DNA of 64,000 nucleotides from an uncultured Actinomycetota bacterium (GTDB lineage Bacteria; Actinomycetota; Actinomycetes; DATJPE01): contig CAWFYM010000012.1 in assembly GCA_963820065.1 (NCBI GenBank), positions 117,593-181,592 on the forward strand. The letters are read 5' to 3'. The notes below the pieces were generated by a model, which saw only the letters and a program-made list of their open reading frames with translations, was not told where the DNA came from and did not search any database. Shown here piece after piece: positions 3,085 through 48,444 of this stretch (the stretch's first letter is position 1; every line of letters starts with the position of its first letter). A program made the translations under genes and the position numbers.

Positions 3085-5895
<2,811 letters not shown>

Positions 5896-6056
5896 GAGTT
5901 CTCCAGGTCGGGGCCGCAGGACACTGCGGCCGGTCAAGACATCGTAATCGGCTCGTGACCTGGCGTCCCACCACGCACGGCGCCTGTCGGCATCGCTCCG
6001 GAGTCAGGGCGAAAAGTCCCTCGCGCCAGGCCCGGTTCCGCGGGCAGGATCCAAGC

Positions 6057-6623
6057 ATGGAGCCCGTGACCTTGACCGATGGTGTGATCGTGCTGAGACC
6101 CCTCCGACCCGAGGACGTCGAGGCCATCACCGAGGCCTGCCAGGACCCCGAAACCCAACGCTGGACCACCGTGCCGGTGCCGTACACCCACGAACACTCC
6201 GTCGAGTTCGTCGCGGGAAACGGCCCCGAGTCCGAGGGCTGGGTGCAGGGTCGCAACCCCTTGTGGGTCGTGACCTCGGCCGACGACGACCGCTACGGCG
6301 GCGCCCTCGACCTCCGGCTGGACGGCGCGGGCAAGGCCGAGGTGGGCTATGCCCTCGCCCCGTGGCTTCGCGGCCGCGGCCACATGCGGCGGGCGCTACA
6401 GCTGGCCTGCCGGTGGGGCTTCGACGAGGCGGGGCTCGCCACGATCATCTGGTTTGCCCATGTGGGCAACACCGCCTCGCGCCGGACAGCCGAAGCCGTC
6501 GGTTTCCGCGTGCTCGAGGGGACGCTGCGCCAGCACTGCGTCTCGCGCGGAGTCCGCTACGACTCCTGGGTCGGGGACCTTCTTCCCGGCGACCTCGCCA
6601 CGGACGCCGCCCACACCGGATGA
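6057..6623 (+). CDS. GNAT N-acetyltransferase (RimJ/RimL type)
   Basis: LRPLRPED, AEVGYALAPWLRGRG, NTASRRTAEAVGF. Confidence 0.85.
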   Translation: MEPVTLTDGVIVLRPLRPEDVEAITEACQDPETQRWTTVPVPYTHEHSVEFVAGNGPESEGWVQGRNPLWVVTSADDDRYGGALDLRLDGAGKAEVGYALAPWLRGRGHMRRALQLACRWGFDEAGLATIIWFAHVGNTASRRTAEAVGFRVLEGTLRQHCVSRGVRYDSWVGDLLPGDLATDAAHTG

Positions 6624-7156
6624 CCGAACTGCGCCCTATCCCGGTCATCGACCTCGGCGACGTCCGGCTCGCCGCTCTGGTGGACGACGACGCCGCAGAG
6701 ATCTTCTCGCTGGCGCACGACGATGCGGCGATCAGACGCTTCAGCTCGCTGGCCGCGGCCACGAGTCTGGCCGAGACGCAGCGATGGGTGCGCTCCCGCG
6801 ACACGGCCGATCGGATGGAGTGGCTGGTGAGGACCAGTCAGTTGAGCGTGGCCGGCCGGGTGGCCCTGCACAAGATCGACCTGGACGAGGGCGTGGCCGA
6901 GATCGGGTACGGGCTGTTCGAGGCGCATCGCGGGCGAGGGCTCGCTCGCCGGATGGTCGAGGCCGTGACGGCGTACGGCTTCGAGACCCTTGGCCTGCGA
7001 CGCATCACCCTCGAGCACGCGATCGCCAACGACCGGTCGTGTGCGCTCGCCACCGCCTGCCGCTACCGGCTCGAAGGCACGATGCGGCAGGCGTTCGAGG
7101 ACCACGAGGGCGGCTACGACGACGCCCACCTGCACGCCAGGCTGCGCACGGACTGA
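6620..7156 (+). CDS. GNAT N-acetyltransferase (RimJ/RimL type)
   Basis: AEIGYGLFEAHRGRGLA, EHAIANDRSC, EGTMRQ; ATGA overlap with upstream GNAT. Confidence 0.85.
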   Translation: MTELRPIPVIDLGDVRLAALVDDDAAEIFSLAHDDAAIRRFSSLAAATSLAETQRWVRSRDTADRMEWLVRTSQLSVAGRVALHKIDLDEGVAEIGYGLFEAHRGRGLARRMVEAVTAYGFETLGLRRITLEHAIANDRSCALATACRYRLEGTMRQAFEDHEGGYDDAHLHARLRTD

Positions 7157-7278
7157 CCGCCGTCCCCGAGGGGCCATCTGCGCATGATCACGAGGGAGTG
7201 GTGGGGGGCGGGGATGAGATCGGGGACGTCCGGCGTTGACGCAGGCGACTCGGGGGCCGCGCAGATGGGAGCAGCGTC

Positions 7279-7929
7279 ATGAGGATCGCCGTACTGGGAA
7301 CGGGCACCGTGGGCACGACGGTGGCCACGGGTCTGCTGGCGCTCGGCCACGAGGTTCGGCTCGGCTCCCGCACCGCCGACAACGAGAAGGCGCTGGGCTG
7401 GCTCGCGACCGTCGATGACGGTGGCGGCGTGGGCACGTTCGCCGATGTCGCCGCGTGGGGCGAGGTCATCGTCAACGCCACGAGCGGTGAGGCCTCCGTC
7501 GCGGTGGTCACCGGCGTGGCCGAGCAGGCAGCCGGCAAGGTGCTCATCGACATCTCCAACCCGCTGGACTTCTCCCACGGCTTCCCGCCCACCCTGTCGG
7601 TCGTCAACGACGACAGCCTCGCCGAGCAGCTGCAGCGGGCTGTCCCTGCGGCTCGCGTCGTCAAGGCGCTCAACACCCTGACCGCCGACCTGATGCTCAA
7701 CCCGGCGGCGCTGCCCGAGCCCACGGACCTGTTCCTGGCCGGCGACGACCAGACGGCCAAGGACGTCGTCCGCGGCTTGCTCACCCAGGCTGGCTGGGAG
7801 TCGGCGCACATTCACGATCTCGGAGGTATCGAGGCGGCCCGCGGGCCAGAGATGTGGCTACCCCTGTGGCTGCGGATCATGGGTGCTGTCGGCAACCCGA
7901 CCTTCAACGTGCGGATCGTTCGAGGCTGA
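7279..7929 (+). CDS. NADPH-dependent F420 reductase-like / NADP oxidoreductase
   Basis: MRIAVLGTGTVG Rossmann motif, LIDISNPLD, VVKALNT, DLGGIEAAR. Confidence 0.85.
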   Translation: MRIAVLGTGTVGTTVATGLLALGHEVRLGSRTADNEKALGWLATVDDGGGVGTFADVAAWGEVIVNATSGEASVAVVTGVAEQAAGKVLIDISNPLDFSHGFPPTLSVVNDDSLAEQLQRAVPAARVVKALNTLTADLMLNPAALPEPTDLFLAGDDQTAKDVVRGLLTQAGWESAHIHDLGGIEAARGPEMWLPLWLRIMGAVGNPTFNVRIVRG

Positions 7930-34260: not shown

Positions 34261-35220
34261 CTAGACGGGCTGGAACCCCGAGAGCCTCGCGTTGTCGATG
34301 ACGACGGCCGCGGGGGCCTCGACCAGACGCAGGGTGTTGAGCGAGGTCTCGCCGAAGGCGTTCTTCACCGCGCTGGACAACCCGAGAACCCCGACCACGC
34401 GCCCGCGCGCCCGCAGCGGCATGGACAAGAACGTCGCCATCGACCCCTCGTCCTCCGCTCCGAGGTTGCCGTGCTCATCGGCCACGCGGGCCTGCAGGTC
34501 GTGAACGCCGATCGACTGGCCGGTGAGCTGCGCGGCGTCCTCGGCGACGGCGGCGAAGAACTCGCCGTACTGCGCGTGAGAGGTCTCGCGGGCCACCGTC
34601 AGGTACGTCGTCCGGTCGTCGAGCATCAGGACCGACGCGAGGTCGTAGTCGACGATCTTGCCGAGCACGTTCAGCACCGCGGCGACGGTCTCCTCGAAGC
34701 CCTGGACGTCGCCGGCGATGCCGGTCATCTCGGCCGCCACCTGGGCCTCGAACAGCTTGCGGTCGAGCAGGTCGCAGACCCGCCCGAAGACATCGTCGTC
34801 GGAGAGCTCGAGCGTGTCGGGCGTCAGCCGCTCCCGGCCGCCACGCGCCTCATCAGCCGACACGACCAGCCCGCGCACGGTCGAGACGAGGTCGGGCGCC
34901 TCGAAGTCCTTGGTCAAGAACGCCTCGGCGCCGACGTGCTCGCCCCAGTAGCGGTCGCTCGCGGCATCGAGCGAGGTGAGCAGCAGCACCGGGATGTCAG
35001 AGGTCTGCCAGTCGTCCTTGAGCACGCGCGCCGCGACGTAGCCGGACACGCGCGGCATCTGGACGTCGAGGATCACGCAGTCGGGCTGGTGGGCGAAGAC
35101 CGCCTGGACAGCCTCGACACCGTCCTCGGCGTTCACGACGGTGAACCCCTCGCGCTCGAGAACCATCCCCACGATGCGGCGCAGCGTGGGACTGTCGTCG
35201 GCGATCACGACGGTGGGCAT
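34261..35220 (-). CDS. Response regulator (REC) with C-terminal GAF-like domain
   Basis: VVIADDS, LDVQMP, LLLTS, FLTK; C-terminus FLSMPLRARGRVVGVL...VIDNARL. Confidence 0.85.
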   Translation of the reverse strand: MPTVVIADDSPTLRRIVGMVLEREGFTVVNAEDGVEAVQAVFAHQPDCVILDVQMPRVSGYVAARVLKDDWQTSDIPVLLLTSLDAASDRYWGEHVGAEAFLTKDFEAPDLVSTVRGLVVSADEARGGRERLTPDTLELSDDDVFGRVCDLLDRKLFEAQVAAEMTGIAGDVQGFEETVAAVLNVLGKIVDYDLASVLMLDDRTTYLTVARETSHAQYGEFFAAVAEDAAQLTGQSIGVHDLQARVADEHGNLGAEDEGSMATFLSMPLRARGRVVGVLGLSSAVKNAFGETSLNTLRLVEAPAAVVIDNARLSGFQPV

Positions 35221-35232
35221 GGCTGTCCTTCC

Positions 35233-37434
35233 TTAGCGTCCGACGAGACGACGGACCGTATCCACGAGTTCGGCCTGATCGAAGTCGCTCTTGAGCAGGT
35301 AGGCGTTGGCACCCGCATCCAGACCCGCCCTCTTGTCCGCGTCATCACCCCGCGAGGTCATGATCACGACGGGTACGTCCTCCCAGCCACGGGTACGCCG
35401 GATCGCCCGGGTGAGCGTGAAACCGTCCATCCCCGGCATCTCCACGTCGGAGAGCACGAGGTCGAACGGGTCACCGGCCAGCCGACCCGCGCCGTCCTGG
35501 CCATCGACGGCCGTCACGACGTCGTAGCCGGCGCCCTCCAGGATCACGCGCTGCAGCTCGCGGACCCCGATCGAGTCCTCGACCACCAGCACACGGGGTC
35601 GTTTGTTGGCCGACGCGGCCGGGACCATGTCGACCGACGGCTGACGACCCGCAGGGCTCGGCATCGCGAACGCGCGCCCGCTGGCCAGCTGTTGGAGCGC
35701 CAGCTCGCGCACGTCGAGCAGGAGCAAGACGGTGCCGTCGCCGTCGATGGTGGCGCCGTTGAGCCCAGCCGGGCGACCGAGGAACGAACCGAGGTCCTTG
35801 ACCACGAGCTCGGTCTCACCCTCGAGGGCGTCCACGGCCCAGGCCAGCTGTTCCCCGCCACCGCCGTACCGCACGACGACCGCGACCCGCTGGTCCCGCT
35901 CACCGACGATGCCGAGGGCGTCTCCGAGGTCAGCCACGGGGATGGTCTGGCCATGCCGGATCATCACCTGCGCCCCCGCGACGGTTTGTGATGCGCTGTC
36001 TCGCAGGTTGAGCGTCTCGACGATGTTGGTCACCGGAAGGGCGAACCGCTCGCCCCCGAGCCGGGCGACCAGGCACCGCATCACTCCGAGCGTGACCGGC
36101 AGGGTGAGAGTGAACGTGGTTCCGACGCCGACCGGACTCTCGACCTCGACAGAGCCGCCAAGGTCCTCGACGGCTCGTTGGACGACATCCAGACCGATGC
36201 CTCTCCCAGACGTCTCGGTCACGGCCTCACGGGTCGTGAACCCGGGCACGAACAGCAGGGACAGCAGCGCTGACCCGGTGACGACGGCGTCCTCAGCCAG
36301 CAACCCGTGCGCTACGGCTGCCTCACGCAGGGCCGTCTCATCGATCCCCGGCCCATCGTCGGAAACGCTCAGCATGACGGTCGAGCCCGCGGTACGGGCG
36401 GCGACGCGCACCGTGGCCGGCCCCGACAGACCAAGGGCGCGGCGCTCGTCCGGGCTCTGGCATCCGTGGTCGACAGCATTGGTCACGAGGTGCTTCAGGG
36501 CGTCGGCCACGCCGTCGAGCACGCGGGTGTCGAGCTCGACATCCTCGCCCTCGAGGACCAGCTCGATCTCCTTGCCCGTGGCGGCGGCCACCTCGCGGAC
36601 AAGCGGTGGGAAGGCAGCGACCACGCGGCGCACCGGCACCATCGCGAGACTCATCGCGCCGTCGCGTACCCGTTCCAGCTTGTTCTGGGAGTCCTCGACG
36701 CGGCCGCGCAGGTCACGGGCCGCGCTGGAGAGCTGGTCGGCGAGACCGACCAGACCGGCCACGGCGTCGGCGACCTCGGGCGGCAGGACGTCACGGCCGA
36801 CGGTGGCCGTACGGAGCGACTTCGACCACGCGGCGTGCTCGGCCACGAGGCCGGACACGATCGTGGTCTGACGCTGGACGCGACGGCCCTCCAGCTCGGC
36901 CTCGCCCACGATGTCCAACAGATCGTGCACCCGCCGGGTCGGCACGCGGACGGACTCGCCGACCCGAGGGCGTCCCGTGGGGTCCTCATCCGAGTGGTTT
37001 GCCGCGGAGACGCTGAGGTGCGGCACCTCGACCGGGTCTTCACCGGCCAAGGCACGGTCGAGAGCGTCCACCAAGGCCTGCACGTCCGCCGGCGCGATCG
37101 GGGACGTCGCGCCTGGCATAGCCCGCGAGATGGCCTCGGCCACGGCGAGCAGGAGGTCGACGAGGTCGCGGCGGACGGCGAAGCGGCCGTCCCGCAGAGC
37201 ACCAAGAAGGTCCTCCGCGCGATGAGCGAGGCCGACGACGCTGTCGAGCGCCAGCGCCCGGGCCGATCCCTTCACCGTGTGCGCGTCACGGAACAAGCTG
37301 GTGATCAGCTGCTTGGGCGAGGGGTGACCCTCGAGCCGGAGCAGCCCGTCGCGAAGGGAGTCGAGCTTCTCGTCCACCTCCGCGCGGAAGATGGCGACCA
37401 GCTCGGGGTCGTCGGTCCAGCCGTTGGCAGCCAC
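35233..37434 (-). CDS. cheA: Hybrid chemosensory kinase CheA-REC
   Basis: HPT (RDAHTVKGSA), dimerisation (VRVP..HDLLDIVGE), HATPase (NAVDHG, DDGPGI, SGRGIGLDVV), CheW domain, REC (SDVEMPGMDG). Confidence 0.95.
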   Translation of the reverse strand: MAANGWTDDPELVAIFRAEVDEKLDSLRDGLLRLEGHPSPKQLITSLFRDAHTVKGSARALALDSVVGLAHRAEDLLGALRDGRFAVRRDLVDLLLAVAEAISRAMPGATSPIAPADVQALVDALDRALAGEDPVEVPHLSVSAANHSDEDPTGRPRVGESVRVPTRRVHDLLDIVGEAELEGRRVQRQTTIVSGLVAEHAAWSKSLRTATVGRDVLPPEVADAVAGLVGLADQLSSAARDLRGRVEDSQNKLERVRDGAMSLAMVPVRRVVAAFPPLVREVAAATGKEIELVLEGEDVELDTRVLDGVADALKHLVTNAVDHGCQSPDERRALGLSGPATVRVAARTAGSTVMLSVSDDGPGIDETALREAAVAHGLLAEDAVVTGSALLSLLFVPGFTTREAVTETSGRGIGLDVVQRAVEDLGGSVEVESPVGVGTTFTLTLPVTLGVMRCLVARLGGERFALPVTNIVETLNLRDSASQTVAGAQVMIRHGQTIPVADLGDALGIVGERDQRVAVVVRYGGGGEQLAWAVDALEGETELVVKDLGSFLGRPAGLNGATIDGDGTVLLLLDVRELALQQLASGRAFAMPSPAGRQPSVDMVPAASANKRPRVLVVEDSIGVRELQRVILEGAGYDVVTAVDGQDGAGRLAGDPFDLVLSDVEMPGMDGFTLTRAIRRTRGWEDVPVVIMTSRGDDADKRAGLDAGANAYLLKSDFDQAELVDTVRRLVGR

Positions 37435-37435
37435 G

Positions 37436-39022
37436 TCAGGACACCGTGAACTGGGCGATGCTGGCTCGGAGTTCGGCGGACAGGGTGTTCAGCTGCGCCG
37501 CCGCGGCGGCGGACTGCTTGGACCCCACCGCGTACTGCCGCGACACATCCGAGACCTGCGTCATCGCCGACACCACCTGATCCGAAGCACTGCGCTGCTG
37601 CTGAGTCGCGATCGAGATCTCCCGAGCCGCCGTCGTGGTCTCATCCACCATCCCCGAGATCCGCTCCAACGCATCCACCACATCCCGAGCCAACCCAGCC
37701 CCCGCATGCACCTCCTTCGCGCCCTCCTCAGACGCCAAAATCGTCGCGTTCGTCTCCGCCTGAATCAGCGTCACAATCGCCTGGATCTGACCCGCCGACT
37801 CCTGCGACCGCTCCGCCAACTTCCGCACCTCAGCAGCCACCACCGCGAACCCACGCCCATGCTCACCAGCCCGCGCAGCCTCAATCGCGGCATTCAAAGC
37901 CAACAAGTTCGTCTGATCCGCCAAATCATCAATCACCTCAAGAATCCGACCAATCTCCTGAGACTTCTCACCCAAACTCAAAGCCCGCGACGCAATCGAA
38001 TCCACCCGCGACGCAATCACATCCATCGCCGACACCGACGCCCCCACCGCCACCCGACCCTGCTCCGCATGCCGCAACGTCTCCGACGCATACCGAGCCA
38101 CCGACTCAGCCGTCTCCGCAATCTGCGCCGCCGTCGCCGCCAACTCCTCAATCGTGCTCGTCGTCTCCGCCACCGCCGACGACTGCTGCGTCGCCGACAC
38201 CGCATGCTCCTCAGCCGACGCCAACAACTCCCCCGCCGACGACGCGATCTGCTCACCCCCACCACGAATCTGATCCACCAACACCCGCACGTTGGTGACG
38301 GTGTGGTTGAAGGAGTCGGTGAGCAGGCGCAGATGACGCTCGGAGTCGAGCATGTCGTCGGTCGCCTCGGACGCTTCCATGGCCAGCGCCTGGACCGTCA
38401 GGTCACCCTGGGCGGTCGCGCTGAGGGCTTCGGAGATCTCCGCGACGCGCGCCTCGACCGCCTGGCGTTGTCGTTGGGCCTCACGCCGCATCTCGAACAT
38501 GTAGGTGGCGGACTGCTCGGTGAACCACATCCCCAACACGGTGGCCGAGATGACGACCACAGCGACGGGAACGCTCGCCTCGGTCGCCGTACCCGCGAGG
38601 AAGCCGGCAAGCGCGACGGCCACGCCGCTGCCGACCGCAAGCATCCGCAGCTGCAGCGACTCGAACACGACCCCGAAGTAGGGCAGCAGCACCAAGACCA
38701 AGCCCCAGCCTGCCCCGGCAAAACCACCGAGGGAGTACGTCAGCACCACGGCGGCGACCAGCTGGGCGAACGACGTCGCCGGGTCCCACACCGAGGTCGA
38801 CGCGATCTCCAGCTCCAAGCGCCACGCACGGATGGCGCAACCGCACGCCACGGCAGCCGCAACGGCCATAGCCGCCACACCAGCACCGGTCAGCCAGGTC
38901 GAGACGACCACCTCGGGGGTGAACCGCGCCTCGAGCAACCACAAGGCGGCAGCCAGCACCACGACGAGCGAATGAACCGACACCGTCGCGTGCATGTCGC
39001 GACGCGAGAAGCGGCTCTCCAT
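37436..39022 (-). CDS. Methyl-accepting chemotaxis protein MCP1 (multi-pass N-terminus)
   Basis: [35 protein letters not shown]; about six hydrophobic segments; AAAGGA SD before ATG 39022. Confidence 0.95.
37446..38282. repeat. 837-bp MCP signalling-domain repeat, copy 1
   Basis: Matches copies 2-4 except two synonymous substitutions seen by eye. Confidence 0.95.
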
Positions 39023-39079
39023 CGACTGTCCTTTCCCCACCAGAACGTGTCCGGCGCCACGAGCGGCCCCTCGTGCGTG

Positions 39080-39107
39080 TCATCGGCCCCCGCTGCCCCC
39101 GCCTTTA
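39080..39107 (-). promoter_or_regulatory. Sigma28 (FliA/WhiG)-like promoter for MCP1-cheA-RR
   Basis: Minus strand TAAA-N16-GCCGATGA. Confidence 0.7.
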
Positions 39108-39442
39108 GCCCATACGGGTGACCCCATCGGCGCGCGGGAAAGGGCAAGAGCGCAGCGAGGAGGGAGCGGGTGGGCGGAGGACGCCACATGACGATCAGAG
39201 CCAGCACCACGACGAAGCAAACATGCAGAGGTCCTGGTCGGGGTGGTGGGCGGAGGACGCCACATGACGATCAGAGCCAGCACCACGACGAAGCAAACAT
39301 GCAGAGGTCCTGGTTGGGGTGGTGGGCGGTGGACGGCCGTGGCGGGCCTGGCGGGAGGCCGAGCGAAGCGAAGGCCGGATGGTAGGCCGACCACCGCCCA
39401 CCACCCCGACCAGGACCCCCAGCCCACACCGCCGAGATCGGG
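39083..39442. repeat. ~360-bp intergenic repeat element, copy A
   Basis: Near-identical to 42853-43213; contains 76-bp tandem repeat (39169-39329) and 27-bp inverted repeat (39306-39332/39391-39417). Confidence 0.93.
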
Positions 39443-39485
39443 CCCCGCACCGTCGAGAAGCCCGACCAGGACCCAGAAGCACGGC

Positions 39486-41192
39486 TCAAGACCCGGTGAC
39501 GGTGAATTGGGCGATGCTGGCTCGGAGTTCGGCGGACAGGGTGTTCAGCTGCGCCGCCGCGGCGGCGGACTGCTTGGACCCCACCGCGTACTGCCGCGAC
39601 ACATCCGAGACCTGCGTCATCGCCGACACCACCTGATCCGAAGCACTGCGCTGCTGCTGAGTCGCGATCGAGATCTCCCGAGCCGCCGTCGTGGTCTCAT
39701 CCACCATCCCCGAGATCCGCTCCAACGCATCCACCACATCCCGAGCCAACCCAGCCCCCGCATGCACCTCCTTCGCGCCCTCCTCAGACGCCAAGATCGT
39801 CGCGTTCGTCTCCGCCTGAATCAGCGTCACAATCGCCTGGATCTGACCCGCCGACTCCTGCGACCGCTCCGCCAACTTCCGCACCTCAGCAGCCACCACC
39901 GCGAACCCACGCCCATGCTCACCAGCCCGCGCAGCCTCAATCGCGGCATTCAAAGCCAACAAGTTCGTCTGATCCGCCAAATCATCAATCACCTCAAGAA
40001 TCCGACCAATCTCCTGAGACTTCTCACCCAAACTCAAAGCCCGCGACGCAATCGAATCCACCCGCGACGCAATCACATCCATCGCCGACACCGACGCCCC
40101 CACCGCCACCCGACCCTGCTCCGCATGCCGCAACGTCTCCGACGCATACCGAGCCACCGACTCAGCCGTCTCCGCAATCTGCGCCGCCGTCGCCGCCAAC
40201 TCCTCAATCGTGCTCGTCGTCTCCGCCACCGCCGACGACTGCTGCGTCGCCGACACCGCATGCTCCTCAGCCGACGCCAACAACTCCCCCGCCGACGACG
40301 CGATCTGCTCACCCCCACCACGAATCTGATCCACCAACGAACGAAGACTCCCCACGGCGTGGTCGAAGGCCGAGGCGAGCTCGACGATCACCTGGGTCAT
40401 CTCGGAGTCTTCGCCGTCATCGACGCTCACGCTGGCGAGCTCACCGCTGCCTGACAGGTCTCCGTGGGAGACCTTCCCGAGCACCTCAGCCAGCTCCCGG
40501 ACCTGCACGGAGAGCACAGCCTGCTGCCACGCCGTCCCTTCAGCCGCCTCATACAGCGACAGCGACACTCCTCGCACGATCATGAAAGCCGCAGGCATTC
40601 CGATGGTCAGGGCCACGGTCCAGGCGGTCTCCGCGGGGACCATGTCCGCGCTGACGGTCCCCGACAGCCATCCGCTGACCGGGGCGGCCACGGCGAGGAG
40701 CCCGACGATGATCCAGCCGCTCGCATAGACGAGCACGGTGGCGAGATAGGCAGCCGCGAGCAGCACGACGATCCACACCGGGCTGGACACGCCGCCGGTC
40801 CAGATCGTGATCATCGAGGCCGCGAGCAGCTGGCCCGTACCGCACAAGCCGTCCCAGACGTCGGTGGTCGAGTAGAAGTCGCCGCGCCGAAGCGCCCGGA
40901 TCGACAGCCCGGCCGCCACGGCCGCGATCACCACCTGGGCCGCGAGCAGGAGCCATACCGCGCCGTCCACGGCGCCGACGGTGCCCGACGCCCACAAGCC
41001 GACGATCACGGCGGTGAAGCCGGTCAGCCCGATATGCAGACCGATGGTCTCGGTGGCATTGCGGCGGTTGAACGGCAAGGACGCGCCGCCGTCCTTGGTC
41101 CGGTCGATCGCCTCCAGCGCCTGAACTGCGGCCGGGCCGACTGGCCGCTCAGAGGCTCGGGGTCCCGCGGGGCGTTCGTGCGTGATCGACAT
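39486..41192 (-). CDS. Methyl-accepting chemotaxis protein MCP2
   Basis: Same signalling domain; distinct multi-TM N-terminus; HAMP-like SHGDLS...SAFDHAV. Confidence 0.95.
39502..40338. repeat. 837-bp MCP signalling-domain repeat, copy 2
   Basis: Appears identical to copies 3 and 4. Confidence 0.95.
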
Positions 41193-41198
41193 GACCCT

Positions 41199-42791
41199 TC
41201 ACTCCTGATTCGCAGCGACGCCGACCGCTGCTCGGTTATTGGGCTCGGTGACGGTGAATTGGGCGATGCTGGCTCGGAGTTCGGCGGACAGGGTGTTCAG
41301 CTGCGCCGCCGCGGCGGCGGACTGCTTGGACCCCACCGCGTACTGCCGCGACACATCCGAGACCTGCGTCATCGCCGACACCACCTGATCCGAAGCACTG
41401 CGCTGCTGCTGAGTCGCGATCGAGATCTCCCGAGCCGCCGTCGTGGTCTCATCCACCATCCCCGAGATCCGCTCCAACGCATCCACCACATCCCGAGCCA
41501 ACCCAGCCCCCGCATGCACCTCCTTCGCGCCCTCCTCAGACGCCAAGATCGTCGCGTTCGTCTCCGCCTGAATCAGCGTCACAATCGCCTGGATCTGACC
41601 CGCCGACTCCTGCGACCGCTCCGCCAACTTCCGCACCTCAGCAGCCACCACCGCGAACCCACGCCCATGCTCACCAGCCCGCGCAGCCTCAATCGCGGCA
41701 TTCAAAGCCAACAAGTTCGTCTGATCCGCCAAATCATCAATCACCTCAAGAATCCGACCAATCTCCTGAGACTTCTCACCCAAACTCAAAGCCCGCGACG
41801 CAATCGAATCCACCCGCGACGCAATCACATCCATCGCCGACACCGACGCCCCCACCGCCACCCGACCCTGCTCCGCATGCCGCAACGTCTCCGACGCATA
41901 CCGAGCCACCGACTCAGCCGTCTCCGCAATCTGCGCCGCCGTCGCCGCCAACTCCTCAATCGTGCTCGTCGTCTCCGCCACCGCCGACGACTGCTGCGTC
42001 GCCGACACCGCATGCTCCTCAGCCGACGCCAACAACTCCCCCGCCGACGACGCGATCTGCTCACCCCCACCACGAATCTGATCCACCAACGAACGAAGAC
42101 TCCCCACCGTGTGGTTGAACGACGCCGTGAGCATCACGATCGACTCGAGGCTGCCCTCAGGCGATGGCCCCGCACCCACGAGCTCGCCGTCAGCCACGCA
42201 GGCCAACCGCTCGGACAGGTCGCCGATCTGGCGCTGCAGCGCCGCGCGCTCGCGCTCGATCGTCGCCTCACGCCCATGGGTGAGCCGTCCGACGATGGCG
42301 CTCAGGTAGACCATGCCAGGCACCGTGAACAAGGCGATGACAGCGAGCGGGATCGCGGAGTCGACCCACGTGTGCGAGAGCACTCCCATGAGCACCAAGC
42401 TGAGCAGCGAAAGCACGACGAAGCCGTGCACCTGCCACATCCGTTCCAGCAGGAACGCGAACAACGCCAAGATGGCCAACAAGGTCCCGCCGACCCCGAG
42501 CAGACCGCCGCTGACGGTCGCCATGCCGGTGATGTAGACCACCTGCGCGGGGATCATCCACCGGGTCCACTGCAGGGTCGTCTCAAGGTCTCCGGCCCGT
42601 TGCCGTACGGCGACCACCGCGGTCGCCACGGCCAAGACCACGCCTACCGCGGCCCACGCAAGGAACGCCGGCCAGTAGACGACCGCCTCGGTGCGGAACC
42701 GCTCCGTGAGCACCGCCCCAGCGCTCGCCAGCAGCACCCCGACGCCCATGGCGCCAGCAGCAGCTGCAGTGAGTCCCTTGGAGACGTCCAC
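41199..42791 (-). CDS. Methyl-accepting chemotaxis protein MCP3
   Basis: Same signalling domain; distinct multi-TM N-terminus; GAGAGG SD. Confidence 0.95.
41254..42090. repeat. 837-bp MCP signalling-domain repeat, copy 3
   Basis: Appears identical to copies 2 and 4. Confidence 0.95.
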
Positions 42792-42849
42792 GCTCGTCCT
42801 CTCAAACCCTCAGCGGGCCACGCCCCGCGCAAGCCCGTCCCCCGTCTGA

Positions 42850-42877
42850 CTGTCGGCCCCCACCACCCCCGCCTTTA
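42850..42877 (-). promoter_or_regulatory. Sigma28-like promoter for MCP3-MCP2
   Basis: Minus strand TAAA-N16-GCCGACAG. Confidence 0.65.
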
Positions 42878-43213
42878 GCCCATACGGGTGACCCCATCGG
42901 CGCGCGGGAAAGGGCAAGAGCGCAGCGAGGAGGGAGCGGGTGGGCGGAGGACGCCACATGACGATCAGAGCCAGCACCACGACGAAGCAAACATGCAGAG
43001 GTCCTGGTCGGGGTGGTGGGCGGAGGACGCCACATGACGATCAGAGCCAGCACCACGACGAAGCAAACATGCAGAGGTCCTGGTTGGGGTGGTGGGCGGT
43101 GGACGGCCGTGGCGGGCCTGGCGGGAGGCCGAGCGAAGCGAAGGCCGGATGGTAGGCCGACCACCGCCCACCACCCCGACCAGGACCCCCAGCCCACCAC
43201 CGCCGAGATCGGG
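42853..43213. repeat. ~360-bp intergenic repeat element, copy B
   Basis: Offset 3770 bp from copy A; identical by eye over 42866-43197. Confidence 0.93.
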
Positions 43214-43260
43214 GTTCTGCACCGGTCGAGTTAGCCCGACCGGTGCAGAAACCCGATCTC
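43205..43260. terminator. 24-bp stem hairpin at the MCP4 stop codon
   Basis: GAGATCGGGGTTCTGCACCGGTCG-N8-CGACCGGTGCAGAAACCCGATCTC (one mismatch); no clear U-tract. Confidence 0.55.
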
Positions 43261-44845
43261 AAGATCCGGTGACGGTGAATTGGGCGATGCTGGCTCGGAG
43301 TTCGGCGGACAGGGTGTTCAGCTGCGCCGCCGCGGCGGCGGACTGCTTGGACCCCACCGCGTACTGCCGCGACACATCCGAGACCTGCGTCATCGCCGAC
43401 ACCACCTGATCCGAAGCACTGCGCTGCTGCTGAGTCGCGATCGAGATCTCCCGAGCCGCCGTCGTGGTCTCATCCACCATCCCCGAGATCCGCTCCAACG
43501 CATCCACCACATCCCGAGCCAACCCAGCCCCCGCATGCACCTCCTTCGCGCCCTCCTCAGACGCCAAGATCGTCGCGTTCGTCTCCGCCTGAATCAGCGT
43601 CACAATCGCCTGGATCTGACCCGCCGACTCCTGCGACCGCTCCGCCAACTTCCGCACCTCAGCAGCCACCACCGCGAACCCACGCCCATGCTCACCAGCC
43701 CGCGCAGCCTCAATCGCGGCATTCAAAGCCAACAAGTTCGTCTGATCCGCCAAATCATCAATCACCTCAAGAATCCGACCAATCTCCTGAGACTTCTCAC
43801 CCAAACTCAAAGCCCGCGACGCAATCGAATCCACCCGCGACGCAATCACATCCATCGCCGACACCGACGCCCCCACCGCCACCCGACCCTGCTCCGCATG
43901 CCGCAACGTCTCCGACGCATACCGAGCCACCGACTCAGCCGTCTCCGCAATCTGCGCCGCCGTCGCCGCCAACTCCTCAATCGTGCTCGTCGTCTCCGCC
44001 ACCGCCGACGACTGCTGCGTCGCCGACACCGCATGCTCCTCAGCCGACGCCAACAACTCCCCCGCCGACGACGCGATCTGCTCACCCCCACCACGAATCT
44101 GATCCACCAACACCCGCAAGTTCCCCACCGTGTGGTTGAACGATTCGGTCAAGGACGTGACCAGGCGGTCGCCGGCCAGCTCGACCTCGATCGGTGTGAG
44201 CTCACCGGCTGCTGCGCGGGCGAGGGCAGCGGACAGCTCCTCGACCTGTCGTTCCAGGGCCAAGCGGGCGTCTTCTGACTCCTCCTCGAGCTTGAACAAC
44301 GACGACGCGAGCTCGTCGCTGATGAGCCCGCAGCCGATGACGCAGCCCACGGCCACGATGTCGAGCGCCGACCCGCCGCCGTCCAGTGACCCGGACCACT
44401 GCGCTGCGGCGAGCAGCAAGATCGCGAGCAAGACCGACAGGGCCGCGCTCTGGACCCGGTCGAGCACGATCGAGCCGAACAGCACGATCGGTACGAACAT
44501 CGGCCAGAGCGGGCCGTCCAGACCACCGGAGAGCGCAACGACCGCGGTGACCCAGGCCACGTGACCGACCAGCGTGACCACGGTCGGCCAGGACAGCTCG
44601 TCGCGCAGTCCTCCGGAGAAGAACCGGCCGGACCCCAGGGCGATCGCCGTCGCAAGCGTGGCGATGGCGGCGCCGAACACCAGCCAGGCGATGAGCGCCC
44701 TCGTTGGTTCGACGTCTCCGACCGCGACAGCACCGACAGCAAGGACCAGTTCGATCCACAGCGCGATCGAGGCCATGCGCATCAGCCGCAGGGACGTGCC
44801 GACGTCGTCGGGCGCCCCCGGCAGCGCAGCGGGCGGGGCGGTCAT
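43259..44845 (-). CDS. Methyl-accepting chemotaxis protein MCP4
   Basis: Same signalling domain; distinct multi-TM N-terminus; ATGA overlap with cheW. Confidence 0.95.
43275..44111. repeat. 837-bp MCP signalling-domain repeat, copy 4
   Basis: Appears identical to copies 2 and 3. Confidence 0.95.
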
Positions 44846-45375
44846 GCCCCGCGACGGGCGCTGGGCAGGGTGCTGCGCAGGCGCAGAACCGCCGCGACCT
44901 CAAGCAAAGAGATGGGTCCGCCGTCGTCCACGAGCCCGCTGACCAGCTCGGCGGCCGACGGGGCGACGGTGGCTGGGACGGGTTCCGGTCCGGCCGTTCC
45001 GGGTCGCAGCAGCCCGGTGACCGCCTCGACCAGCAGCGCCGCCTCGGCGGTGTCGTCGGAGAGGACCACGAGACGCGCACTGGACGGCAGAGGCGACGCA
45101 TCGGCGCCGACGAGCGGCCGGAGGTCGACGACGGCGAGGACGCGCCCGCGCCAGTTCACGACGCCGGTCAGCCAGCCAGGGGATCCGGGGACCCGCGTGA
45201 CCACGGGGACGGGAACGACCTCGGCGACGTCAGCCATCGGTACGGCGTACCGGCCGCCGCCCAGCCGAACCACGACGGCTTCGGGCGCCAGCTGAGCGTC
45301 GGTGTCACCCGAATCGTCGGCGCCACGGGCGACGCGAGCGTCCCTGACCGACGTCGAGGCAGCAGAGGTCTCCAC
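44842..45375 (-). CDS. cheW: Chemotaxis coupling protein CheW
   Basis: [39 protein letters not shown]. Confidence 0.92.
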
Positions 45376-45419: not shown

Positions 45420-47354
45420 TCAGGCTGGCGTGGAGGCGCTCTCCCGCAGGTCGATCACCCGGGCGTCACGCGCCCCGGCCAGGATGTCGGTGATCTCACG
45501 TCCGACCAGCTCGTGCCGCTCCATGAGTGCGTCGCGCAGAGCCTCGACGAGGTGTCGGTTGGCCATGAGCAGCTCGCGGGCCACCATCTTCTGCTGCTGC
45601 AGCAGGTCCTCCACCCGTGCGCGGCCGTCGGCGTCAGCGAGGACGCGACCGACCAGGTTGGTGTCGGAGAAGGCGGAGTTCTGGACGGCACCGTAGGAGA
45701 TCAACGTGTCGGTCATGCCGCAGGCGCCGACCATCTGGGCCGCCACGTTGGTGGCGTAGAGCAGGTCTCCCCCGGGGCCGGTGGAGATGTCGCCGAAGAA
45801 CAGCTCCTCGGCGCACTGGCCTCCCATCGCGATCTGCACGAGGTGAAGCATCTCGGTCTTGGATCGCGTGTAGACATCTTCGGCGTCACCGTGCGCGAGC
45901 AGGCCGAGGGCGTCCCTGCGCTTGATGATCGTGAGGATCTCCAGCCGGCGGTACGGCGCCACGAGCCACGCGATCGTGGCGTGGCCGGCCTCGTGCGTGG
46001 CGATGAGCCGCTTCTCGTGAACGGTGTAGGCGACCGGCTGTCCCATGCCGACCTCCTCGACGAGCCGGGCCTTCTCGATGTCGCCGCGGTGCATCATCTG
46101 GTCGCCACGACGCAACGCGTTGACCAGCGCCTCGTCAAAGAGGTGCTCGATCATGACCGGGGTGTAGCCCTGGGTCACCGAGGCCAGCCCGTCACGCTGC
46201 TCGTCCTCGTCGAGGTCGAGGTGGTGGCTCTTCTTGCCCAGGAAGTAGTCGATCAGGTCGCGGCGCCCGGCCTTGCCTGGGGTCTCGAACGTGAGCCGGC
46301 GGTCGAAGCGGCCGGGACGGAGCAGGGCCGGGTCGAGATTGTCCGCTCGGTTGGTGGCGGCGATGAGCAGGACGTTGGTCGACGGGGGCGCGGGCTTCGC
46401 GATCTGTCGGTGCGCGGGCAGGTAGGGGTTGATGCGGTCGATCCACCAGGCCTTGAACTTCTGGCCGCCGGAGAGCTCGTCGAAGGACTGCATCTGCACG
46501 AGCAGCTCGTTGACGACGCCACCGACACCCTCGCTGACCACAGCGTTGGTCACCGGACGAGCGCCGGAGGCGATCACGCCCGCTCCGGACGCGGAGGCGT
46601 ACTCGGTCGGCAGGCCGGTCAACCCCCCGCAGCACAGGGGGGCGCCGGTGGCGCGAGCCACGTCGGGCATGGTCGTGGCAGACAGCCCGCCGCGCGCCAT
46701 CGCGATCGCGTCGATCTCCTCGATGAAGCCGATCGCCCCGCCCTCGGCGCGCGCGGCCTTGCGCAGCGCCTTGAAGTAGGAGCGGATCTTGCGCGCCGTC
46801 GCGCCGTAGTACATCGACTGGAACGCCGTGGCGGAGACGAAGTAGAACGGAACGCCGGCTTCGGCAGCCATGGCCTTGGCCAGATACGTCTTGCCGGTCC
46901 CGGGCATGCCCTCGAACAGCAGGCCACGGCGTGGGGTGCCACCCATCTCCTCGCGGAACGCCTTGTGGGCGAGGAACAGGTTCAGCGAGCGGACCACGTC
47001 CTCCTTCACCGCATCGATGCCGATCACGTCGTCGAGGCGGGTATCGATCTGCTCGGGTCGGTAGACCACGTGCGGCGACCGACCCGCGCCCAGCGTCGTG
47101 CCGACCAGCAGGAGGATCAGCGCGAGGAAGAACAGTCCCGGCATGAGCAGCAGCGGGTCGAGGTGCGGCAGCGCGAAGGGGTTGAACGGACGGCCGTCGA
47201 TGATGCGTGTCCAGAGGAACAGCGCAGGGATCCCCAGCACGAGCGCGAGGGTCCACAGCCTGCGGCGGCGCTTGAGCTCGCGGTTGATGCCGACATCGGC
47301 GGTGCGCGCGTCGACTACGGATCGTCCGTGATCGTCACTCTCAGTAGTCGCCAC
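45420..47354 (-). CDS. FtsH-like membrane AAA+ ATPase / M41 metalloprotease (divergent paralog)
   Basis: Two N-terminal TMs, GMPGTGKT, FIEEID, ATNRADNLDPALLRPGRFDR, HEAGH, GGQCAEE. Confidence 0.9.
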   Translation of the reverse strand: MATTESDDHGRSVVDARTADVGINRELKRRRRLWTLALVLGIPALFLWTRIIDGRPFNPFALPHLDPLLLMPGLFFLALILLLVGTTLGAGRSPHVVYRPEQIDTRLDDVIGIDAVKEDVVRSLNLFLAHKAFREEMGGTPRRGLLFEGMPGTGKTYLAKAMAAEAGVPFYFVSATAFQSMYYGATARKIRSYFKALRKAARAEGGAIGFIEEIDAIAMARGGLSATTMPDVARATGAPLCCGGLTGLPTEYASASGAGVIASGARPVTNAVVSEGVGGVVNELLVQMQSFDELSGGQKFKAWWIDRINPYLPAHRQIAKPAPPSTNVLLIAATNRADNLDPALLRPGRFDRRLTFETPGKAGRRDLIDYFLGKKSHHLDLDEDEQRDGLASVTQGYTPVMIEHLFDEALVNALRRGDQMMHRGDIEKARLVEEVGMGQPVAYTVHEKRLIATHEAGHATIAWLVAPYRRLEILTIIKRRDALGLLAHGDAEDVYTRSKTEMLHLVQIAMGGQCAEELFFGDISTGPGGDLLYATNVAAQMVGACGMTDTLISYGAVQNSAFSDTNLVGRVLADADGRARVEDLLQQQKMVARELLMANRHLVEALRDALMERHELVGREITDILAGARDARVIDLRESASTPA

Positions 47355-47547
47355 GTGGTCCTCCCCGGCTCGGGTGACGGCGCGTCGCCGGAAGGTCGAG
47401 ACACTGAGTCACCACTCGAGTCTGCTGTCCGGCGACGGACCTGTCTGCCCCGTTCACCCGTCTGGCGCATCCAGAATCCGAAGAACGATCCGTTCGGCTG
47501 ACTGGGTTCTCCCTCGGGTGCCGCTGACGGGAAGGCCAGCTGCGCTC

Positions 47548-48444
47548 TCAGCCGGCGGCGACGCCGTTGAACAAGGAGACCTCGCGTCCGTCCTCGTCGT
47601 ACGGACCCGCCGGTTCGCCACGCACGAGGCGGTAGAACTCATAGCCCCAGGCCCGCTGGCCGAGGTGGTCGGACAGGGCGAAGAACGGCCCGTCGACGGT
47701 GACCTGCGTGGCATGGGCTGCCAGGGCGCGCATCTTCAGCGGCTCGTAGTCGACGGCGTCGACCCGACAGGTGGCCATCTCGTCGGGGACGCCGAACGGC
47801 AGCGAGTCGACATCGTCGGTGCCGAAGAAGTCGACGCCGGCCTCCTTCATGGCGTCCATCCCCTGCTGCAGGAACGAGCGAGGGGTGACGTTCTCGTACA
47901 CCTTCAGCACCGCCCACGCCTGCCCGAGGTCTGGGCGGAAGCCGGCGTCGGCCGCGAGCTCGACCCCGCGCATCGCCACCCGATGAGCCTGGATGTGATC
48001 GGGGTGGCCGTAGCCGCCGTTGTCGTCGTAGGTGACGACGACGGCGGGTCGGACCTCGCGGATGACTTCCACCAGGTGGGCAGCGGCCTCATCGACGTCG
48101 GCGCGCCAGAAGCAGCCGGGGCGCTCGTTGGTCTCGAGGCCCATCATTCCGCTGTCGCGGTAGCGCCCCGCGCCACCCAGGAAGCGGTGGTCGGTGACCC
48201 CCAGCACGGCCATGGCCGCCGAGAGCTCCTCGATGCGCTGGGGTCCGAGCTGGTCGTCGTGAGCGGCCGCGAGGTGCTCGAGGTCGGGGACGAGCACCTC
48301 CCCCTCCTCGCCCAGCGTGCAGGTCACCAGCGTGACGGGGACCCCCTCGGCGACATAGCGAGCCATCGAGGCCCCGTTGCCGATGCACTCGTCGTCGGGG
48401 TGGGCGTGGACGAGCAGCAGGCCGTGACGCGGTGACTCGGGCAT
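47548..48444 (-). CDS. mshB: GlcNAc-Ins deacetylase (mycothiol biosynthesis)
   Basis: VHAHPDDE, TCTLGEEGEV, YRDSGM, GGYGHPDHI, AHATQV, FFALS. Confidence 0.92.
   Translation of the reverse strand: MPESPRHGLLLVHAHPDDECIGNGASMARYVAEGVPVTLVTCTLGEEGEVLVPDLEHLAAAHDDQLGPQRIEELSAAMAVLGVTDHRFLGGAGRYRDSGMMGLETNERPGCFWRADVDEAAAHLVEVIREVRPAVVVTYDDNGGYGHPDHIQAHRVAMRGVELAADAGFRPDLGQAWAVLKVYENVTPRSFLQQGMDAMKEAGVDFFGTDDVDSLPFGVPDEMATCRVDAVDYEPLKMRALAAHATQVTVDGPFFALSDHLGQRAWGYEFYRLVRGEPAGPYDEDGREVSLFNGVAAG

Follow-up and report, generated by a model that had tools for sequence, protein, structure and literature searches.

What keeps four chemoreceptor genes identical in one half, down to their silent sites, while the other half differs from gene to gene? 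This question is raised by a 64,000-nucleotide stretch of DNA from an actinobacterium (contig CAWFYM010000012.1; hereafter the window, whose positions serve as coordinates), in which four tandem genes for methyl-accepting chemotaxis proteins (MCPs) carry the same 837-bp block, encoding the signalling module, behind dissimilar membrane-embedded N-termini. Comparison of the array-bearing genome (G000) with its relatives indicates that the module is in concerted evolution by gene conversion. We further observed that the block has an extreme, polar strand skew and conserved synonymous sites, which go beyond an earlier reading made from the sequence alone. At a probability of about 0.85, we favour a joint reading in which gene conversion homogenises the module and a strand-asymmetric fixation bias, or selection on the DNA or RNA of the module, acts in the array. 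The receptor genes and their blocks are as follows.

43259..44845, minus strand: mcp4, type A receptor (open reading frame, ORF; PF00015, E 9.7e-45), with a polytopic membrane N-terminus and the constant signalling module
41199..42791, minus strand: mcp3, type B receptor (ORF; PF00015)
39486..41192, minus strand: mcp2, type C receptor (ORF; PF00015), 6 bp downstream of mcp3
37436..39040, minus strand: mcp1, type D receptor (ORF; PF00015), directly upstream of the CheA hybrid gene
43275..44111, minus strand: constant block in mcp4, 837/837 identical to the mcp2 and mcp3 copies; coding-strand GC skew 0.34, third-position C 0.11
41254..42090, minus strand: constant block in mcp3, identical to the mcp2 and mcp4 copies
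39502..40338, minus strand: constant block in mcp2, identical to the mcp3 and mcp4 copies
37446..38282, minus strand: constant block in mcp1 (copy 1), 2/837 differences from the other three

Four receptors share one block of DNA

A repeat search, MAFFT alignment and exact position-by-position comparison bear out the sequence-only reading of four direct 837-bp copies at these coordinates. Copies 2–4 are identical in 837 of 837 positions, and the two differences counted before, both in copy 1, lie at offsets 5 and 293 and are indeed synonymous, since all four blocks translate identically over 278 aa. The N-termini, previously called barely alignable, align only in part (27–38% protein identity over 62–249 aa), and within the genome their DNA shows no match beyond 20–50 nt at the junction. 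Specifically, the identity starts within a few bases of the LVDQIRGGG codons and runs to the gene end; the constant part thus reaches from the junction F(N/D)HTVGxLRxLV/DQIRGGG (slash, junction) to the stop codon and comprises the whole cytoplasmic signalling module. A BLASTN search for additional copies, proposed earlier as a check, gave no fifth copy in the whole 3.73-Mb assembly, the next best match being 65.6% identical over 669 nt (contig C3:49614-50280).

The edges of the block are sharp, and its 5' limit lies at the same junction motif and codon in both families with homogenised arrays, the genus of G000 (family f1) and family f40. On a finer scale, the 5' limits of identity in the genus scatter from -34 to +17 nt around the junction, and the MAFFT alignment shows a mosaic edge upstream of it, with one variant common to mcp2 and mcp3 and another to mcp1 and mcp4. 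At the 3' end the block coordinates hold, but the identity of mcp2 and mcp4 passes the stop codon into the spacer (~330 bp; 1291 bp at 97.8%), where 39083-39382 resembles 42853-43152 at 99%.

The module evolves in concert while the sensors keep their positions

The genus comparison covered five species (G000 with G001, G002, G004 and G005), 18 blocks and 837 columns. All four relatives have the same operon with three or four receptors. Grouping of the blocks by genome, put forward earlier as a test of concerted evolution, was found, with 0–8 differences of 837 within and 23–94 between genomes. The 780 nt upstream of the blocks match across species by array position instead (70–86% nucleotide identity over ~450–780 nt). 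Orthologues of types C and D exist in all four other species; those of type A occupy the same array position in G002, G004 and G005, with none found in the G001 array, and those of type B occur in G001, G002 and G005, with none found in the G004 array. Because the N-termini match by position and the blocks by genome, the receptor types are older than the species and the modules have been homogenised independently in each species. Recent duplication is rejected as the source of the identity, the N-termini being orthologous by position across species. The same double grouping supports the earlier claim that gene conversion is still homogenising the signalling module, with the sensors remaining distinct. 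In all, paralogous tracts are closer within than between genomes, the duplication predates the species split, and the tracts are mosaic with variable ends, as concerted evolution would have it.

On the comparison of genomes, the four receptors are old paralogues with different polytopic membrane sensors, and recurrent intrachromosomal gene conversion between the tandem copies keeps the signalling module identical, which gives all receptors one common kinase-docking surface. Receptors can be gained or lost without a break of frame. The earlier idea of an accordion-like repertoire is compatible with the varying copy number (3–4 receptors in the genus, 3–6 in f40), although no unequal-crossover product was seen directly. 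Cassette-like exchange, suggested at the same time, found no counterpart: the 10 ORFs scanned between 32332 and 48444 include no recombinase and no reverse transcriptase dedicated to such exchange, the rest of the genome not having been searched for these enzymes, and the block has its borders within coding sequence, where two domains meet, unlike programmed cassette systems (shufflon, integron, DGR, pilE/pilS type), in which a dedicated enzyme acts on recombination sites at the borders of the cassette. Likewise, joints of the predicted excised circles were absent from the short contigs of low-depth metagenomes, a weak test that used Logan contigs only.

Within the genus, block distances follow cheA distances only in part, with G005 discordant, and some exchange of blocks between genus species may have taken place. 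In G002 (contig C4, locus L001), a 2.2-kb insertion at ~5060-7292 in array orientation separates receptor types A and B; on the opposite strand it holds an ORF of 287 aa in which a Cys/His-rich HNH-like motif was recognised by eye. G003, another species of the genus, is assembled in 230 contigs; all it shows of the block is 148 nt, 89% identical, where a contig ends (C76:19767-19914), as expected of a short-read assembly broken at a repeat.

Conversion tracts in other families

Arrays were inspected in 16 of the 126 genomes with a match. The arrays of G198, G322 and G396, other loci of G214, G262, G373 and G307, and locus L022 of G003 were left out. Among the matches listed in the wider locus search were one close relative (L024, which is the same place as G087:C9) and 79 distant MCPs, and the latter stayed out of the comparison. 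Genomes this closely related cannot count as independent samples. The unpublished G037 (locus L020) supplies one of the 16 unskewed comparators, one of the 24 single-copy loci and one tree row, and no conclusion rests on it; G029 and G261, also unpublished, enter the search tallies only.

In family f40, seven genomes have arrays of 3–6 receptors whose blocks differ at 0–14 of 834 positions within a genome, except for one copy in G232 with 36–38 differences, and whose N-termini are orthologous across genomes (64–90%). Smaller tracts occur as well. In both G162 and G142, an array member that is otherwise 60% identical contains a 75-nt patch with 2 differences, and in G014 (family f9) a near-identical 450-nt tract (six 75-nt bins with 0–1 differences each) is shared by two copies 68 kb apart. 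Conversion tracts are therefore of variable length. The array member with the patch is an orthologous "interloper" MCP (L104 8670-9503 in G162; L106 3445-4278 in G142). Its signalling domain, ~60% identical to those of the neighbours, is not homogenised outside the patch, which lies at the conserved hairpin tip; the G142 copy is strongly skewed all the same (0.34).

The block is the most strand-skewed DNA of the genome

The block differs in composition from the upstream part of the same genes, mostly at third codon positions. These have about 6–11% C, 68–71% G, 21–22% T and 0% A in the block (G+T 89%) vs about 40–48% C and 41–47% G upstream, and in all five genus species third-position C is 0.06 in the block vs 0.40–0.48 upstream. 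The coding-strand GC skew, (G-C)/(G+C), peaks at 0.405, or 7.7 standard deviations (SD; genome SD 0.052). Of 74,373 genome windows of 750 nt, the 44 with the strongest skew all lie in the array, which is thus the most skewed DNA of the 3.73-Mb genome. Across the genus the skew of the blocks is 0.27–0.40. The second most skewed stretch (contig C3:759600-761000, +0.26, or 0.257, on the plus strand) is an unrelated single-copy sequence that belongs to an open frame longer than 1120 aa.

Codon usage reflects this composition. Among two-fold degenerate codons ending in a pyrimidine, 74% end in T in the block vs 10–11% in the N-termini and in the cheA and response-regulator genes; the range is 45–80% for skewed blocks overall, 0–11% for five of seven tabulated single-copy loci, and 0.04, 0.14 and 0.33 for the three tabulated loci of family f34. 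Leucine is encoded by TTG in 15 of 20 codons of the block and in 11–16 of ~20 across skewed blocks, vs 0 in seven tabulated single-copy homologues and 0–1 in the three f34 loci. Four-fold sites of the block are 74% G. The block has 19 runs of three or more G vs 2 of three or more C, and skewed blocks have 16–25 such G runs vs 4–11 in unskewed homologues (n=16, the set also used for antisense frames and amino-acid usage). Second codon positions and amino-acid usage are hardly changed, the largest amino-acid shift being 2%, so that amino-acid composition is rejected as the cause of the skew. An overlapping antisense gene is rejected too, antisense frame 0 being open in skewed and unskewed homologues alike.

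The skew is polar. In all 12 genomes with homogenised arrays, third-position C is 0.00–0.04 in the first 25 codons and rises 3'-ward, and at codons 251–275 it is normal (0.28–0.72) though these codons are still identical between copies. It also goes with homogenisation: the 12 genomes, from two families, all have skews of 0.19–0.40, and 20 of 24 single-copy homologue loci (68–91% protein identity) have skews of -0.10 to 0.12, as do nine non-homogenised tandem copies in f34 with -0.07 to 0.10. In the third family with the signature, low third-position C coincides with the conversion tract of G014 (0.04–0.16 in five bins, 0.32 in the last), the diverged flanks having 0.36–0.48. Being repeated is not enough, since three other near-identical repeat pairs of the genome have an absolute skew of at most 0.07, and a generic repeat property is rejected.

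Silent sites of the block diverge slowly

Additionally, silent sites of the block are conserved between species. Four-fold identity of G000 with G002 or G004 is 0.84–0.87 in the block and 0.40–0.52, near compositional expectation, in 11 comparisons of cheA, the regulator, the FtsH-like gene and orthologous N-termini; block distances are 0.21–0.43 of cheA distances. Synonymous singletons in the blocks are mostly exchanges between G and T (27/85 in the genus, 31/60 in f40), T>C (the commonest class in the genus, 21/85) and C>G, and G>A makes up 0/85 in the genus and 3/60 in f40. Between families, four-fold identity is barely above what composition predicts (f1 vs f40 or f9, 0.53–0.67 observed and 0.47–0.59 expected; f1 vs f40 alone, 0.60–0.67 and 0.52–0.59). 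The bias is therefore old and maintained, and recent transfer of a skewed block between the families is rejected.

Possible causes of the bias

To explain skew and silent-site conservation together, we propose that conversion, or selection on the DNA or RNA of the module, would carry a strong fixation bias that is strand-asymmetric: the coding strand would keep G and T and lose C and A, most strongly at the 5' junction and fading 3'-ward, which would yield both the extreme GC skew and the slow synonymous divergence. A fixation bias is preferred to a raised mutation rate alone, because a higher mutation rate would speed silent divergence. Classical GC-biased conversion is rejected, as third-position G+C falls (0.78–0.79 in the block vs 0.87–0.89 upstream). 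Of the explanations considered, a strand-asymmetric fixation bias linked to conversion fits best, and its mechanism is unproven. Three candidate causes can be named, the nuclease NucS, exposure of single strands as in R-loops, and selection on DNA or RNA, none of which rises above an outside chance by itself.

The skew might be the footprint of NucS/EndoMS acting on conversion heteroduplexes, which would make conversion keto/amino-biased on a fixed strand. If one strand were regularly the invading or nascent one, heteroduplexes with keto over amino bases would be recognised and the reciprocal ones would not, exchanges between G and T being neutral. This idea builds on two published properties, namely that NucS cuts only G/T, G/G and T/T mismatches (PMC6159521) and that it blocks homeologous, not homologous, recombination (PMC5290159). 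The genome has the gene (C10:626551, 131.6 bits) and no match to MutS_V. Third positions made of 89% G+T, a singleton spectrum rich in exchanges between G and T and nearly free of G>A, and the drop of third-position G+C, which ordinary GC-biased conversion misfits, all agree with it, and slow synonymous divergence is expected if most new keto-to-amino mutations are rejected. However, the sign of the bias does not follow unless the invading and the corrected strand are known, and one plausible scheme gives the opposite sign; the lack of skew in the f34 pairs finds no explanation here (NucS was not looked for in the f34 genomes), and the commonest singleton in the genus, T>C, goes from keto to amino. 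The link to NucS itself is put forward as a proposal, and a tentative one. Its generalisation, that conversion in actinobacteria would be strand-biased because their only mismatch sensor, NucS, misses A/C, C/C and A/A, so that tracts drift keto-rich, polar and slow, seems rather doubtful.

Alternatively, the coding (non-template) strand might be exposed as a single strand through R-loops, forks or resection, and damage would turn C to T, A to G and G to T; the same structures would trigger recombination, so that skew and conversion would reinforce each other. The block does show the positive GC skew (+0.34 to +0.40) and the G clusters on the non-template strand that mark R-loop-prone DNA, and the wider genus range of skew, the excess of G runs, the sharp onset with decay along the direction of transcription, the raised third-position T and the replacement of CTG by TTG point the same way. 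For each of the 11 genomes considered, either the array is on the G-rich strand, which is probably the leading one, or the flank skew gives no decision. Taken along the array in its coding direction, this flank skew ranges from -0.003 to +0.045 and no genome is a clear lagging-strand case, so that effects of replication and transcription are inseparable. A higher mutation rate should raise silent divergence, yet the block is far more conserved than its flanks. Moreover, C to T alone predicts a third-position T near 0.5, and the observed values are 0.68 for G and 0.21 for T; canonical G-quadruplex (G4) motifs are absent in all five genus genomes, and the N-termini in the same transcripts are unskewed. 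We consider exposure a doubtful cause. The composition might instead be selected for a function of the DNA or mRNA (a weakly structured C-poor message, an array of binding sites, non-optimal codons or an overlapping gene) and conversion might only spread it. The conserved synonymous sites (0.84–0.87 vs 0.40–0.52) are in keeping with this, as is the persistence of the composition until four-fold sites of f1 and f40 were almost randomised within the G/T constraint. But homologues 83–91% identical as protein have normal codons in 20 of the 24 single-copy loci, and protein function therefore does not need the composition. The skew in G014 follows the conversion tract rather than the domain, no antisense frame is open only in skewed blocks, and no Rfam family was matched, and selection of this kind appears unlikely.

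The identity itself could be no biological phenomenon, arising from independent recent duplications in each genome or from assembly and polishing that copied one consensus. The assembly looks like a long-read metagenome bin with contig ends overlapping over 9–12 kb at 99–99.6%, the sequence is found only in metagenome runs (shares 0.05–0.32), two relatives carry frameshifts in array genes, and only short contigs were compared, none of which spans the array. Nevertheless, this explanation is highly improbable. Recent duplication cannot give N-termini that are orthologous by position in five species with blocks that group by genome. Twelve independently assembled genomes agree, small differences (1–14 nt) survive in many copies, the sharp edges fall at the same codon in two families, and short contigs from other runs cross the junctions of block and N-terminus (X1 record 6 at 41539-42510, X3 record 24 at 43847-44202). 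Polishing cannot create the skew or the between-species pattern.

Several observations weigh against homogenisation by conversion with a strand-asymmetric bias. As only short contigs of low-depth metagenomes were compared, no conversion event was seen directly, and long-read polishing could have erased a few real differences; arrays were inspected in no more than the 16 matching genomes given above. Four of the 24 single-copy loci have intermediate skews of 0.18–0.23. Tandem pairs in f34 differ at 0–5 positions per 75-nt bin in places, yet have no skew, and similarity alone therefore does not give skew. Conversely, a diverged array member of G142 (219/834 differences from its neighbours) is skewed at 0.34 without homogenisation, which is unexplained. 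There is no gradient of between-species divergence along the block, unlike composition. Finally, the protein tree puts the f40 blocks basal and nests f1 with unskewed homologues, so that one gain and one loss of the skew would fit as well as two gains.

Comparison with known systems

Concerted evolution of bacterial multigene families by gene conversion is familiar from rRNA operons and tuf genes. The array resembles these in that non-reciprocal copying makes the paralogues of one genome more alike than the orthologues of different genomes, but here homogenisation is confined to one module per gene and stops at a fixed domain junction, and the converted tract has an extreme strand-asymmetric composition with third-position G+C below that of its flanks. 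With GC-biased gene conversion it shares a bias in fixation that goes with recombination tracts, alters synonymous composition and looks like selection; unlike the symmetric rise of G+C in that process, third-position G+C falls (~0.79 vs 0.89), and G is split from C and T from A on one strand. Immunoglobulin switch regions and the pilE G4 of Neisseria are R-loop-prone, G-rich recombination regions in which skew and recombination reinforce each other. The block likewise has a G-rich, G-clustered non-template strand associated with recombination; in contrast to those regions, it is protein-coding under strong purifying selection, has no canonical G4 in the genus, and its R-loops are hypothetical.

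The closest parallel among receptors is found in Campylobacter jejuni, where Tlp2, Tlp3 and Tlp4 have identical signalling domains and sensors of low similarity (PMC9769880) and where the shared C-terminal tlp DNA forms large repeats held to mediate chromosomal inversions of ~92 kb (PMC6433261). As in this group A (Tlp2/3/4, and Tlp11), paralogous chemoreceptors combine a constant signalling module with dissimilar sensors, and the shared DNA recombines there. The principle is thus already known and the array is a further example of it, so that the sequence-only reading went too far in suspecting an undescribed system. The Campylobacter genes are dispersed and partly inverted and have periplasmic dCache_1 sensors, whereas the present genes form a tandem direct array in one operon and their polytopic membrane sensors match no Pfam family. 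The consulted extracts of the two papers do not speak of a strand skew or of synonymous constraint in the shared module. The array is therefore new in its phylum and layout, being tandem, in-operon, with membrane-embedded sensors and probably a non-flagellar pathway.

The main interest lies in a converted tract marked by the most extreme strand skew of its genome, a polar gradient and conserved silent sites, a signature that tracks conversion in three families. In the titles and abstract starts of the literature searched, no report of strand skew in converted bacterial paralogues was found; PMC10463633, as far as its consulted extract goes, deals with mammalian arrays and their AT bias and sets no precedent. 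The polar compositional signature of a conversion tract is thus apparently undescribed. If it stems from a fixation bias of the conversion machinery, this would be a force distinct from GC-biased conversion that laboratory actinobacteria could put to a direct test. Codon bias and conserved silent sites of this kind should then not be taken for selection, and a sequence-only detector of long-term gene conversion could become possible. Were NucS responsible, receptor arrays would be the first natural footprint of a "keto-biased gene conversion", a new force imitating selection on synonymous sites.

The chemosensory operon and its surroundings

The receptors belong to a chemosensory operon of CheW, four MCPs, a CheA-CheW-receiver hybrid and a receiver-GAF regulator. 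Its further features are listed below.

44842..45375, minus strand: CheW (PF01584, E 2.1e-27), first chemosensory gene of the cluster, upstream of the receptors
35233..37434, minus strand: CheA hybrid kinase (domain matches to Hpt, HATPase_c, CheW and receiver), downstream of the receptors
34261..35220, minus strand: receiver-GAF response regulator (domain matches), downstream of the CheA hybrid
42792..43258, minus strand: intergenic spacer mcp4-mcp3, 467 bp, 97% identical to the mcp2-mcp1 spacer; 76-bp tandem repeat (2.2 copies) at 42939-43105
39041..39485, minus strand: intergenic spacer mcp2-mcp1, 445 bp, with the same 76-bp tandem repeat at 39169-39335

All four receptors match PF00015 (MCPsignal) at 152.8–156.4 bits (E 1e-44 to 1e-46; curated cut-off 34.6), and the partners CheW and CheA hybrid stand in the same cluster. 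The N-termini (233–284 aa) have 5–6 hydrophobic segments each, and none of the four matches a Pfam family above cut-off. The genome (13 contigs, 3.73 Mb, 69% G+C, 99.4% complete) has five MCPs in all, the four of the array and one more, and one CheR and one CheB away from the array, at C3:268 kb. It gave no match to flagellin at this completeness, and the pathway probably controls something other than flagella. The receiver-GAF regulator is the likely output.

The 76-bp repeat (2.2 copies, 97% matches) occurs in both long spacers, and related units in varying copy number are found in the spacers of G002 and G004. A search of array and spacers against Rfam gave no family at gathering score and only two sub-threshold hits to miRNA models, both in spacers, and a structured RNA was rejected on these grounds. 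A scan for promoters and terminators gave 0 promoters and 1 terminator-like site, not above shuffled sequences.

As to the assembly, the ends of contigs C5, C8, C11 and C12 overlap one another, and C10:833921-846430 overlaps C2:65833-78341 (9–12.5 kb, 98.9–99.6%), which suggests unmerged long-read contigs or co-assembled strains; the contig of the window starts with such an end overlap. In G001 (L003) and G005 (L004), several array genes and cheA are split by frameshifts, and a frame of 1129 aa fuses two G005 receptors; these are probably long-read indel errors rather than pseudogenes.

Downstream, a VanW-domain gene follows the receiver-GAF regulator. Directly upstream of CheW, 45420-48444 holds the genes for an FtsH-like AAA+/M41 protease and a PIG-L deacetylase, a position kept in all five genus species.

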